Source: a virus. From it: a DNA stretch of 64,000 nucleotides. The notes under the pieces were generated by a model. It did not search any database. It saw only the letters and a program-made list of their open reading frames with translations, and was not told the DNA's origin. Position 1 is the stretch's first letter. Every line of letters begins with the position of its first letter. Below are positions 34,901 to 43,869 of this stretch, one piece after another. A program made the translations under genes and the position numbers. The stretch spans positions 3,361 through 67,360 of the IMG/VR virus record IMGVR_UViG_3300044821_000127; one strand, given 5' to 3'.

Positions 34901-37738
34901 TTAATGTCCAACGGCCATCCAACCACAAAAACCGGAGGTTGGATTTGAGTTTGTTACCACTGTAAAGCCAGTGACACTTGTACCGGAAAAAGAAGCGTAA
35001 ACTGGAGTTGTTGAGTTTGTGCTTATATTAAAGAAATCGATGCCATTAGGAAATGCTGCGGCAAATGTATATGAGGCTGGAGTTGTTGAGCAAACGACAC
35101 TGCCAACTTTGATAATTGGCTGAGAGAATCCAGGATCATTGATTTTTGGTATGGTAGTTGAGGCGGAGATAGTGGATGGACCGGTGCCCCCAGAAATAGA
35201 AATGCCATATCCAGCGGAATTGCTGGTAACACCGGTGTTGGATACTATTACCGCTCCGGTGGTGGGAGAAACGGAAATTCCACTGCCACTACCAGTAACA
35301 CTGCTAACCGCACCGGCCCCGCCGCAAGCGCCCCCGGAACCGGCAACAATACCGGAGGAGTTCACTTGTAGACATTGAGTTGACCCGGTTATTGGGGTGG
35401 TGATTGCTCCGGAGAACGTTGCATTTTTTGTCCAAAAATTATTCCAAATGTTGGACGCGCCACCAAGATCAACGGTGTTGGTTAACGTTGGAAGAAAACT
35501 TCCATTAACAAAGTTAGTTGCTCCAGCATAGCTAAGTGCCACTCCGGTAGAGTTTACCTTAATCATATCGTAGCCAAGATTGGACGTAAGCCAGGTATTA
35601 TCTGGGAAGACCGTTCCGCCCCCACCGCCACCACTACAACCATTTGGTTGGTTACAAAAGATATATGTATTAGTTCCAGCATCTGGAATAGTATTACTAA
35701 CATTTCCTGCAAACTGATTACCTGCGATCAGATTAGCATTCCCAGCAAGAACTTGAATTGGGTAGGATTGATTTGCCCCAGAACTACTTGAATTAACTAC
35801 TGAACTATTATTCGCTCCGTTAATCACAATTCCGGGGTATAGTCCACTTCCTTGAAGGGAGCTTGCGTAAACATGAACACCTTGAAGAATAATACGTGAT
35901 CCAGCCCCAAGGACAATTCCGGCATTATAGGAGTTTATATAGTTTCCGCCGGTAATTGTTAGTCCATCCAACGCGGCGTTATTTGCATAAATTGCCGCTA
36001 ATCCAGTAGCTGCATGGCAATTATCCATAAACACATTGTAGATTTGTCCAGTTCCGGTAAATAGAAATGGATAGCCGGTATGAAGAGCAAAAGTCTCAGA
36101 AATAACATTTGTCAGATGCACGGCATAAATTTGTTGAGAACCAGTTGGATTAAAAACTAATCCATAGGTGTTTGATAGATTGGATTCAAGAGAAAGGGCA
36201 TCCACATAAAGCCCAGAAACATTATCTACTTCCATATCGGTGAGATAATTTCCTACCTCACCAATGTGAAAGAAGATATCTTGCGGTACGTCGGAGGCGA
36301 AACTTGTTCCGGTGATCATGATTGCAGCGGTACCGGTAGTTGATACTGGAGTTCCATTATTAGAGTAGTTATTGTTTGTGTGGCGATCGGCAATGGTGCC
36401 ACCGTCGATATAATCGGCGTAAAGGCCGCCAGCCACACTAATCTTATCAAAGATAAGTCCAAAATCTCCATGTTCACGAAGGATAGCCCCAACACCACTA
36501 CCGGCCGTTCGAGTTGGAACGGAGTAAATTCCAATATTTTGTGCTCCGCCAAACTGCGTGTGAGAAAAGGTTACCATGTCGCCGGCTGTAAAGGTATTAA
36601 GGGCGCAGATTTGAGAAGCCTGCATTCCATCACCAACAAGAGTGATATTGTATCCAGTTATATTAATGCCAGCCGAAATCCCATAGCAATTGGGGGTGCC
36701 CGGAAAGTAAATCATTGCATTTGAGCCGGCCGCTGCAATGGCAGCATTTATTGCAGCTAGGTCATCGGCACTTCCGTTTCCGACTGCTCCGTAGTTTTGG
36801 ATGTTATACCATTGGACGTTTTGCTTAATGGCAGCGGGCGCGGCGGGGCCGGTGGTGTTATTTCCAAGAACGGTTTTTGCGGCGATGTTTCCCAATTGAG
36901 AAGGAGAGAGCGAGCCGGCAAGATCGGAAAAGTTTGGCTGGGTTGTGGAGGGAATACCGCTGGTTGAGATTGTATTTACCCACTGGTGAGTGGTGGAAAC
37001 TATGCTGCGCACCCCGCCAAGGGTAGTAGCGGAAGGATTCGGCAGAACGGTCGGAGAAATAGTCCCACCGGAAGTTGTTTGTAAGAGAACGCTATTTCCG
37101 GTGGTTCCGGTAATCATTTCACCAAGAACACTTGCATTATCATAAAGTACTCGCCCAGAAGTGCCACTAGAGATTGGGGTTGTTCCTACTGTCAAATTTG
37201 TGTTGAGAGTGCCGCAATCTTTCAGTAATGTTCCAGTGGTGTTGTTCCAGCATGCTACATCGTTTACTACGGAAGTTGCAGGGCCTACTATTCCACCGAT
37301 GGTAAAGGGGAAGGAGTAGTAAGAACCATTTACGTAGAATTTAAATGGAAGAGGGGCCGCGGAACCGCCGTTACCATAGGCAAGTAATCCGCCGCCTTGG
37401 GCATTGGGAGACAGGCAGAAGAAGTGATAGCCAGTGGCGTTGGTGATGGGGGCGTCGTAGTCACAGAAGTTGGTAAGAAGCTGCCCGGTGCCGGCATTGG
37501 CAAAGGGAGGAGTGCCAGTACCTCTAATGGTCATGCCTAATTCATTTATACCAGTACCAACATTTCCCCCACCAGCCGGACCACTATCAAGCATTGGAGG
37601 GTTGTTTGGCCCGCCAGTAGTTGCATACATGGGAATGCGCCCGGCAGTGCGGTTGCCAGTTTGTAATAGACTGGTTTGTGCATTGGCTGAAAAAGCCAAG
37701 AAGCTAAATATTGTGGAAAGAAGAATTGTCTTTTTCAT
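34901..37738 (-). CDS. tailspike/depolymerase (pectate-lyase-like beta-helix) with Sec signal peptide
   Basis: MKKTILLSTIFSFLAFSANA|Q; NIQNYGAVGNGSADDLAAINAAI..IYFPG beta-helix cap. Confidence 0.8.
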   Translation of the reverse strand: MKKTILLSTIFSFLAFSANAQTSLLQTGNRTAGRIPMYATTGGPNNPPMLDSGPAGGGNVGTGINELGMTIRGTGTPPFANAGTGQLLTNFCDYDAPITNATGYHFFCLSPNAQGGGLLAYGNGGSAAPLPFKFYVNGSYYSFPFTIGGIVGPATSVVNDVACWNNTTGTLLKDCGTLNTNLTVGTTPISSGTSGRVLYDNASVLGEMITGTTGNSVLLQTTSGGTISPTVLPNPSATTLGGVRSIVSTTHQWVNTISTSGIPSTTQPNFSDLAGSLSPSQLGNIAAKTVLGNNTTGPAAPAAIKQNVQWYNIQNYGAVGNGSADDLAAINAAIAAAGSNAMIYFPGTPNCYGISAGINITGYNITLVGDGMQASQICALNTFTAGDMVTFSHTQFGGAQNIGIYSVPTRTAGSGVGAILREHGDFGLIFDKISVAGGLYADYIDGGTIADRHTNNNYSNNGTPVSTTGTAAIMITGTSFASDVPQDIFFHIGEVGNYLTDMEVDNVSGLYVDALSLESNLSNTYGLVFNPTGSQQIYAVHLTNVISETFALHTGYPFLFTGTGQIYNVFMDNCHAATGLAAIYANNAALDGLTITGGNYINSYNAGIVLGAGSRIILQGVHVYASSLQGSGLYPGIVINGANNSSVVNSSSSGANQSYPIQVLAGNANLIAGNQFAGNVSNTIPDAGTNTYIFCNQPNGCSGGGGGGTVFPDNTWLTSNLGYDMIKVNSTGVALSYAGATNFVNGSFLPTLTNTVDLGGASNIWNNFWTKNATFSGAITTPITGSTQCLQVNSSGIVAGSGGACGGAGAVSSVTGSGSGISVSPTTGAVIVSNTGVTSNSAGYGISISGGTGPSTISASTTIPKINDPGFSQPIIKVGSVVCSTTPASYTFAAAFPNGIDFFNISTNSTTPVYASFSGTSVTGFTVVTNSNPTSGFCGWMAVGH

Positions 37739-37741
37739 TTT

Positions 37742-37999
37742 TTACTTCTTGTCTTGCTCATTGGTAGTTTTTGCCGCTTCGGCCTTAAGTTTGACATTTT
37801 CTTCGGTGAGTTGCTTTACCTGCATCTTAAGCGTGTCGCGCTCTTGGACAAGTGGCATGATGGCGGGACCGAGATGCTTGACTTGGGTAGAGAGAGCTTG
37901 CAGTTCTTCGCTGATGGACTGCACTGTCTGATCCGGCGCACCTTGGGCAAAGGCCATGACTGGGAAGAGGATGATCGGCAGGATGATTAAAAGACGCAT
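37742..37999 (-). CDS. exported coiled-coil protein
   Basis: MRLLIILPIILFPVMAFA|Q then heptads; start refined. Confidence 0.65.
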   Translation of the reverse strand: MRLLIILPIILFPVMAFAQGAPDQTVQSISEELQALSTQVKHLGPAIMPLVQERDTLKMQVKQLTEENVKLKAEAAKTTNEQDKK

Positions 38000-38063
38000 G
38001 ATTTTTCCGTTTATGGGCATTGGGTAAGGACACCGGCGACAACAGCGATGCTCTTCGATGGGC

Positions 38064-42357: not shown

Positions 42358-42398
42358 TTTACCAGTCCTTGAGGTAAGGTCAAGAAGGGATAAGTTCA

Positions 42399-42575
42399 TT
42401 ACTTTTTCTTATCGTAAAGAACAGAGCCTCGGGATTTTTTCTTCCTTTCAGGAAGTTTGCCGCCGAGGTCTGCGTCGGCAAACTCTTTTCCTACTTTCTG
42501 CGGAATACCGAGGGTTGATTTACCCTCGGCGGCCGCAAACATTGCTTTACGTTGTGCTTCGGAAACAGAAGGCAT
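42399..42575 (-). CDS. small basic protein ending SVLYDKKK
   Basis: [26 protein letters not shown] phage-family pattern; start refined. Confidence 0.7.
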
Positions 42576-42579
42576 TGGA

Positions 42580-43869
42580 TTAAAGTTCAGAAGACACGTT
42601 GATGATGGAACCACCGGCAACACCTTGAAGTTGACAACCCCAACCAGCGGTAGAGGCAGTGGTAAGGGTTGCAGTAAGTGCAAGGTTATTGGGCGAAGCA
42701 GTACTAAACACCAAAAAGGTAGTAGCAAGGGTACTAGTAGTACTATCCTGAATACGCCAAGTAGAGCTGGATAAGGCAGTGCCGGTAAAGGTTACTCCGC
42801 CGGTAACAGGAGCAGCGCGCATGGTAACAGGGAAGGGGATGATTGCATTACAGGTAGTTGTAGAAGTCAAAACGCCTTGACCAACTGTTACACCGGTAGC
42901 CGGTTCGGTGAAGGATAGGAAATACCGCTGTTGAAGGGCGGTTTCCATTTGCTGCAGGCGGCGCGTAAAGGATTTTGCCCGAAGGTCATTAGCGGAGAGA
43001 ACAACACCAGTAGTTCCAACCAATGGGGTAAGTGCTTGGTTGGGAGTAAGCTGTACACCAGTGAATTCGAACCAGTCATTTGCAGTGCCAGTACCAACAG
43101 GGGTGTAGCAAATAATGGCGGCGACTTCGGTTGCGGCGGAAGGAATAGCTGCGGCGATAGTATATCTATTCCAAGCGGTATTGATAGGAACGAGAAGATT
43201 GCTTGCCGCGCTAGTTTGACCAGTCCAGGTGGAAGAACCGCCGCCGCCACCGTTAAAGGCGAAGGCGAGCTTAGAGGTTCCTTCGTCAGTACCAGTACCA
43301 TAGACAATGGAAACTTGAAGGTTGGAGTTGACGGCGGAAAAGCCGGAACCAGCTTTTGCCAGGAAATCAAGTTCGGCGGTCTTGCCTTGGAAGCGGAGAG
43401 AGGCAGTAGTTTCAACTTCTTGGGCAATACAAGATTGAACAACACCAGCGCCAGAACCCTTATTAACACGAAGGGAGGCATTGTAGCCGACGGGAATATC
43501 GGTCGCACCGGTTTGTTGGGTAACGGTAAGGGTTGTAGCAGCGCCAGACCATGCAATCCAACGATCGGCAGTATAAGTTGCGGTAGTTGTAATGGAACCT
43601 ACCGAAGTACCACGTTGGAAAAGGTTGGTGGAAAAGTCACCGCCGATAATGGCATTATCGTAGTTACCGCCATCAAGTGTTTGGCCGTAGGTTCCCATTT
43701 GGGCGGCGGTAGCGTAAAAATTCTGGGCCTGCGGGGCACCGCCGACAACATCTTGGAAAAGATCAGTCGGGCCAATCTGAACTACTTGAGGAACATAGGG
43801 AACCTGGGCGACTACGGAAGCGGCGAAAGTTGCAGCGGCCACACCCGCAAGAAGGTAACGAAGTTTCAT
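42580..43869 (-). CDS. exported fibre/lectin-like (CBM-type) virion protein
   Basis: [21 protein letters not shown]|Q; [31 protein letters not shown] fibre-tip pattern. Confidence 0.75.

Follow-up and report, generated by a model that had tools for sequence, protein, structure and literature searches.

The window analysed here is a 64-kb stretch of DNA (64,000 nucleotides, positions 3,361 to 67,360) from the 67,360-bp virus record IMGVR_UViG_3300044821_000127, which is rated 100% complete by CheckV and represents an uncultured, short-tailed phage (podovirus) of 67 kb. Its late genes form a single, long operon on the minus strand, starting with the genes for the terminase, the portal, a scaffold-like protein and the capsid, followed by four small head-region proteins. 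The capsid protein (46488-47534) shares 43% identity with capsids of the phiV10/epsilon15 type of podoviruses. The operon continues with a block encoding five proteins, here named A to E, and then with three adaptor paralogues, a nozzle-like tail protein and internal virion proteins, one of which (785 amino acids, aa) bears an SLT domain, so that the genes for A to E sit between head and tail genes of the same operon. The leaders that precede A to E are conserved, of the export-signal type and, in this phage and its clade, present only on appendage-like proteins.

All five genes are encoded on the minus strand. Protein A (42580-43869, 429 aa) consists of a leader, a conserved short N-terminal peptide, a CBM4/22-like lectin domain and a C-terminal beta-sandwich; its leader comprises residues 1-21 (43807-43869), with cleavage predicted before Gln22. 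Protein B (39384-41273, 629 aa) has a leader of residues 1-23 (41205-41273), followed by an N-terminal domain (residues ~24-140, 40854-41204) that it shares with protein E and by a Gly-rich fibre with two LRGDGTW repeats. A 22-aa leader and a SPRY/lectin domain make up protein C (38716-39387, 223 aa), and an 18-aa leader and a coiled coil make up the orphan protein D (37742-37999, 85 aa). Protein E (34901-37738, 945 aa) combines a 20-aa leader, the shared N-terminal domain (mature residues 21 to ~140, 37319-37678, with invariant C92, D95, H105 and C108), a pectate-lyase-like beta-helix and a fibre-like C-terminus.

The N-termini of A to E follow one design, with Lys or Arg close to the beginning, a hydrophobic stretch of about 10-12 uncharged residues that is followed by a c-region, small residues at positions -3 and -1, and Gln at position +1 (5/5). 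All five thereby show the Sec/signal peptidase I pattern of a basic n-region, an h-region of about 10-15 residues, small -3 and -1 residues and a length of about 18-30 residues, as judged by our own crude physico-chemical rules, which were used for leader calls throughout. The original prediction had placed five Sec-type leaders followed by Gln on fibre/spike-region open reading frames (ORFs) starting at 43869, 41273, 39387, 37999 and 37738, and we found them at each of these starts, all in minus-strand late ORFs. For B and D, the longest ORF begins farther upstream, where it overlaps the preceding gene and has no Shine-Dalgarno-like sequence. The shorter starts were preferred because the ATG codons at 41273 (B) and 37999 (D) lie downstream of the preceding stop codon and follow a purine-rich Shine-Dalgarno-like sequence. 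A first crude filter, applied to every ATG-started frame of the genome with a 9-residue hydropathy cut-off of 2.0, flagged B, C, D and E and missed A by a small margin (1.99), although A passes the rule used later for the relatives. The other frames positive for a leader plus Gln were those of a lipoprotein (19491-19961) and of one doubtful 155-aa product; no head or tail-core gene in the genome was positive at its true start. We are highly confident that the N-termini of A to E are real export signals.

The leaders are conserved well beyond this phage. At least 528 relatives of A, about 430 aa long and in many cases located on contigs of 60-70 kb, share 43-65% identity across the clade. A leader ending in a small-x-small|Q site was present in 119 of the 120 listed relatives, and the lone exception begins inside the mature part (truncated start). 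In an alignment of 118 relatives, the leader consensus is almost blank except for its basic start (K2/K3) and the A-x-A-Q site, whereas Gln22 is at least 90% conserved and the following 20 residues are strongly conserved. A search of 1.84 billion representatives with the first 130 residues of E returned 576 clusters for the N-terminal domain, 524 of them at E <= 1e-10. The 150 proteins listed range from 128 to 1599 aa in length, and the match starts at or before residue 53 in 149 of them and at residue 83 in the other. A leader with a small-x-small|Q site precedes the domain in 148/150, and the remaining two have long upstream extensions that resemble over-called starts. Gln at +1 is 99% conserved across the 148 aligned domains, and the median leader length among the relatives of A and of the N-terminal domain is 22 residues. 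Protein D has a single relative (85% identity), which retains the leader. A survey of homologous phages for conserved leaders had been proposed in the original prediction, and such leaders are present at these frequencies. Some members of the N-terminal-domain family (P0224, P0189, P0227 and others) are only 128-222 aa long and consist of leader and domain, with no receptor-binding body.

We also surveyed 37 loci of the clade, four from species genomes (all contigs of metagenome-assembled genomes, MAGs; two of 62-68 kb, the size of a whole phage) and 33 from IMG/VR. The rule-based caller assigned a leader to 33/33 A-like ORFs, to 22/22 fibre ORFs that have the shared domain or are E-like, and to 6 of the 220 ORFs for head, scaffold, portal, small basic, adaptor, nozzle and internal proteins; these counts are not all independent, because six of the 37 loci are near-duplicates. 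Two of the six leader-positive core ORFs encode internal proteins with a membrane-like N-terminus. Gene order is conserved across the loci; a variable cassette, whose genes bear leaders, separates the small basic proteins from the adaptors. Among the unclassified leader-like ORFs of the non-duplicate loci, Gln occupied the predicted +1 position in 23/56, a count that the scoring slightly favours. Within the window, the neighbours of A to E are leaderless: three small proteins between A and B (41308-42399; 91, 160 and 106 aa), two small ORFs without a family between C and D (38064-38719; 121 and ~93 aa), the three adaptor paralogues (32792-34891; 189, 209 and 298 aa; phrog_394) and the nozzle-like protein (29606-32791; 1061 aa; phrog_376), all on the minus strand. 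Since leaders occur on fibre, spike and lectin proteins and not on the head and tail core, the host-recognition parts of these phages probably mature outside the cytoplasm. In one sister locus (L011:934-2577, plus strand), a 548-aa ORF with a twin-arginine-like leader (RRRFLKG) lies upstream of the A gene and is followed by an ORF of 1821 aa whose leader is Sec-like; twin-arginine translocation may be used as well by some members of the clade. Another (L001:6796-7308, plus strand) has, inserted in the group of small basic proteins that separates A from the fibres, an ORF for a 170-aa Cys-rich HNH-like protein that the window lacks.

The mature proteins resemble known virion appendages. The AlphaFold model of A (predicted local distance difference test, pLDDT, 92; predicted template modelling score 0.85) has a first domain that superposes on CBM4-2, CBM22, CBM16, CBM61 and part of CBA120 tailspike 4, with template modelling scores of 0.66-0.73, normalised to the CBM chains, and E 1e-5 against solved CBMs. 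Among viral models (BFVD), A as a whole matched predicted tail-fibre tips from many phages (top E 1.8e-30; 445 matches at E <= 0.001). By its modelled fold, A looks like a CBM4/22-like (CenC-like) lectin of the tail-fibre-tip type, with putative sugar binding. Protein C contains a SPRY domain (Pfam PF00622, 38 bits versus a cut-off of 26.3), and cultured phages have SPRY relatives of it whose annotations read virion structural protein and tail fibre. For E, residues 310-397 match Pect-lyase_RHGA_epim (PF12708; 41.4 bits versus a cut-off of 27). The Gly-rich fibre B has no Pfam or PHROG family, and D matches coiled-coil families only. Consistent with these results, the domains that the original prediction had read from the sequence held up, namely a SPRY domain in C, a beta-helix tailspike in E, a coiled coil in D and a lectin-like fibre tip in A. 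Sequence searches of the PDB with E and with the 197-aa and 209-aa head-region proteins returned nothing useful.

B and E are 47% identical over residues 3-125, and their likeness is confined to the N-terminal domain. This domain heads bodies of varied length and fold, which is the anchor-plus-variable-body plan of receptor-binding proteins. Its model (pLDDT 76.8) had no Foldseek match at E <= 0.001 (best 1.2) and no VIA-align match at Z >= 5 (best 3.0, the stalk of the phi92 endosialidase). Because the piece is probably trimeric, a monomer model is a poor probe of its fold, which we do not claim as new. A predicted complex of the domain with the three adaptor paralogues, based on alignments, gave no answer (score 0.00 versus a mark of 0.32), and we regard this as neutral evidence. 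A possible role of D as an Rz-like i-spanin was unsupported, as the PHROG matches were weak (E 0.0045-0.0071) and no lipoprotein partner adjoins D; a pair of membrane protein and lipoprotein is located elsewhere, at 19491-20353. That D acts as a chaperone would be a guess.

Leaderless homologues offer a view of where the leader ends. With E <= 1e-5 as the limit, the SPRY family of C numbers 227 relatives. A simple hydropathy rule assigned a leader to 20 of the 120 listed, and in these the conserved TWNPSDK start comes after the cleavage site; many of the remaining 100 have TWNPSDK within a few residues of the initiator Met. A similar case is the gene just upstream of A, which in the window encodes a leaderless 178-aa protein (43900-44436, minus strand). 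Its counterparts at the same position are likewise leaderless in the sister loci L001, L021 and L036 and leader-bearing in L002, L009 and L015, and the two forms are related over their mature length (L015 versus L021: E 7.5e-12 over 136 residues). The leader is therefore, from these sequences, a modular add-on at a domain boundary. Predicted cleavage yields proteins equivalent to the leaderless homologues, and this supports real processing. The protein encoded just before A, for which L006 was considered as well, has a short N-terminal motif (hydrophobic residue, T/P, G, x, E/D) that resembles the opening of mature A. The original prediction had seen no conventional cytoplasmic fibre gene in the operon, which is nearly right. 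Besides A to E, no fibre-like genes are apparent in the complete genome save small leaderless proteins of 178 and 209 aa, but the 178-aa protein is one of a group that bears leaders in sister phages.

Several cysteines of the leader-bearing proteins are strongly conserved. In the 148 aligned N-terminal domains, C92, D95, H105 and C108 (E numbering) are 100% conserved, and a second Cys pair is present in about 30%. In A, C147 and C254 are at least 90% conserved, and E has 13 cysteines, an odd number. The cysteine motifs cited in the original prediction are all present.

The near-invariant Gln at +1 could have its origin in the host or in the phage. Bacteroidota generally make little use of Shine-Dalgarno sites. 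In this phage, a Shine-Dalgarno core was found at -18 to -4 in 16 of the 28 late genes, compared to 17% of background 15-mers. Moreover, the Bacteroidota O-glycosylation sequon was not in excess in A (1 observed versus 1.4 expected), B (1 versus 1.7) or E (0 versus 2.5), and sister contigs reach 64% G+C. In view of these results, a Bacteroidota host seems unlikely to us. The bins of the four MAG contigs point to Hyphomicrobiales, Bradyrhizobium, Salinisphaerales and Patescibacteria, four taxa unrelated to one another, a weak kind of evidence that we do not trust, and the ESM Atlas, consulted for a host clue, returned viral clusters only. Among the signal peptidase I substrates of Bacteroidetes, an average of 71% carry Gln at +1, which is cyclised to pyroglutamate as shown by mass spectrometry, according to the available portion of Bochtler et al. 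(2018, PMC5837995). Such a Q-rule host would account for Gln +1, leaving it without meaning for the phage proteins, and the abundance of Phe, Ile and Ser in the leaders of B to E as well as the Gln on many unclassified leader-like ORFs of sister phages would fit. We nevertheless consider this explanation unlikely, given the enriched Shine-Dalgarno cores, the lack of a sequon excess, the G+C content and non-Bacteroidota binning of sister contigs (the latter weak), and a conservation of Gln +1 (99%) that exceeds the host average of 71%. In our reading, the near-invariant Gln reflects selection on the phage proteins, in a host that is probably not a member of the Bacteroidota, the likely benefit being a blocked, protease-resistant N-terminus.

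In the textbook view, the assembly of tailed phages is wholly cytoplasmic. The computation shows the leaders, how well they are conserved, that they are confined to genes of the appendage type, and the folds; from this we infer a different course of events for the phage studied here. Late in infection, the host Sec machinery would move A, B, C, D and E across the inner membrane, where the leader would be cut after the small-x-small site, exposing the conserved Gln, which would probably cyclise to pyroglutamate. The proteins would then fold in the periplasm, where a disulfide would probably form both in the N-terminal domain shared by B and E and in the lectin domain of A. A, B, C and E would serve as receptor-binding appendages, B and E docking via their shared N-terminal domain, and would join the leaderless head and tail core built in the cytoplasm when lysis merges the two compartments. 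The in-vitro completion of P22 heads that lack tailspikes indicates that late attachment is chemically feasible. Genuine Sec/signal peptidase I leaders combined with appendages that join the particle at lysis are the explanation we tentatively favour, with a chance slightly below even. That the whole clade builds its particles in two compartments, with the core made in the cytoplasm, every receptor-binding appendage passing through Sec, being trimmed to an N-terminal pyroglutamate and folding oxidatively in the periplasm, and both joined at lysis, is put forward with the same reserve or slightly more.

The main rival is that A to E are exported but never enter the virion, acting instead from the periplasm on the envelope of the infected cell. 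There, they might mask or destroy receptors or polysaccharide and thus block superinfection or keep progeny off debris, with the N-terminal domain as envelope anchor. A Sec leader by itself places a protein in the periplasm, apart from the particles in the cytoplasm; a pectate-lyase-like domain of the depolymerase type is present in E, and A and C are lectin-like. In addition, the 1061-aa nozzle has extra domains that could, judging from its sequence, bind the host, in which case the exported proteins need not be virion parts. For Porphyromonas phages, proteins with Q-rule signal peptides are read as host-surface modifiers in the part of Matrishin et al. (2023, PMC10367356) available to us. 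Against this, A to E are encoded within the structural operon, flanked by head and tail genes in an order that is conserved; they have the layout of a conserved anchor and a variable body that virion receptor-binding proteins show; and leaderless relatives of C carry virion or tail-fibre annotations. Moreover, no evident fibre or spike would be left in a complete podovirus genome. We therefore judge an action on the envelope without entry into the virion to be possible but distinctly less probable than assembly at lysis. Alternatively, the hydrophobic N-termini could remain uncleaved, either as membrane anchors or as structural helices of fibres in the cytoplasm. The leaders were called by rules, AlphaFold draws residues 3-19 of A as a helix, and hydrophobic N-termini also occur on certain internal virion proteins of the clade (iv181-like, 2/5). 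The helix in A is, however, of low confidence (pLDDT 61-69), a hydrophobic stretch of about 10-12 residues with a c-region is too short to span a membrane, and the leader sequence drifts while its length (median 22), basic start and small-x-small|Q site are kept. As the leaderless relatives also begin exactly at the predicted mature start, uncleaved N-termini appear improbable, even more so than a host-imposed Gln.

A number of points weigh against assembly at lysis. The leaders were assigned by our own rules and not by a trained predictor. Joining only at lysis risks dilution of the appendages, and we found no precedent for tailed-phage appendages that do so. In the literature, we found no description of leaders on tailed-phage fibres, supplements not being covered (Supplementary Data 4 of PMC10367356 might name genes), and the available portions of PMC3556154, PMC3517404 and PMC6102473 contain no report of leaders on tail fibres. 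By our rule, 100 of the 120 listed SPRY relatives of C are leaderless, and with the leaderless relatives of the 178-aa protein this means that such modules can fold without export, so that its selective reason is unclear. Disulfide formation, to which the original prediction had attributed the export, cannot be its general reason, because the only Cys of C lies in its leader and mature D has none. The invariant C-x2-D-x9-H-x2-C pattern could fit a metal site as well as a disulfide, and cytoplasmic proteins of the clade also keep cysteines, e.g., portal C102 at 100%. Finally, DsbA, a plant-type glutaminyl cyclase (Glu_cyclase_2) and a signal peptidase (Peptidase_S26) were not found in the phage genome (the animal-type cyclase family was not searched).

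Beyond the appendage block, the end of the operon (18726-21210, minus strand) encodes a class-3 lipase/esterase of 243 aa (Pfam Lipase_3, phrog_21992). It also encodes a 156-aa lipoprotein whose lipobox reads LSAC, a protein of 129 aa with a membrane segment at its N-terminus, and a phrog_3108 protein of 176 aa. This group may be a lysis cassette that includes an esterase, reminiscent of mycobacteriophage LysB. No clear endolysin was found besides the 785-aa SLT-bearing internal protein. The ORF of the large terminase (52044-54527, minus strand; 827 aa) is bigger and more composite than usual. In addition to terminase families, it matches phrog_5902 at residues 402-671 and helicase-loader and primase profiles within residues 47-287.

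Should entire clades export the proteins with which they recognise the host, it would be the Sec, Dsb and lysis machinery of the infected cell that governs how fibres fold, how disulfides and pyroglutamate arise and when assembly is completed. Pipelines that discard proteins with signal peptides as non-structural would then miss receptor-binding proteins, and engineered or heterologous fibres of such phages would need periplasmic expression. Even if the exported proteins act on the envelope instead, the clade would supply hundreds of modular lectins and depolymerases sent into the envelope of the infected cell.

The closest known counterparts are the tailspikes and fibres of podoviruses. P22 gp9, epsilon15 gp20 and T7 gp17 have an N-terminal particle-binding domain and a variable receptor-binding body, are not known to bear a leader and join particles in the cytoplasm. 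The phage described here is similar in that B and E share an N-terminal domain, E has a beta-helix of the pectate-lyase kind and the capsid is epsilon15/phiV10-like. In contrast, a Sec-type leader precedes the domain in nearly all listed members, and the domain has neither a solved counterpart nor a relative among cultured phages, as megablast of the 9-kb block and tblastn of A and the N-terminal domain gave no match in 50,697 phage records. In fold, A resembles the CenC/CBM4-like fibre tips of Xanthomonas phage FoX4, Burkholderia phage BcepNazgul and cyanophage fibres (BFVD models, E 1e-20 to 1e-30). Those modules terminate a longer fibre (up to 1270 aa), whereas in A the module stands by itself, preceded by a leader and a short conserved peptide.

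Secreted fibres and exported virion proteins are familiar from other contexts. Filamentous phages have virion proteins with Sec leaders, pIII and pVIII, that are assembled outside the cytoplasm. They are, however, a different type of virus, extruded through the envelope with no preformed cytoplasmic capsid. The mosaic adhesive trimer fibres of Bdellovibrio, reportedly the subject of work by Caulton and colleagues in 2024, are said to be phage-fibre-like trimers that carry a Sec leader and have exchangeable tips. They belong to the cell surface of a predator rather than being products of a phage structural operon, and the structural hint towards them is weak (8ond_B at Z 2.4). Nearest to the present observation in the literature, Porphyromonas gingivalis phages do have genes with predicted Q-rule leaders; in the part of the report available (Matrishin et al. 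2023, PMC10367356), these are on capsid proteins, spanins and five genes whose function is unknown, and tail fibres and spikes go unmentioned. The Q-rule substrates of Bacteroidetes, in the available portion of Bochtler et al. (2018, PMC5837995), likewise have a signal peptidase I site followed by Gln. They are host proteins of one phylum, whereas the leaders described here precede a nearly invariant Gln on phage appendages, probably in a host outside the Bacteroidota.

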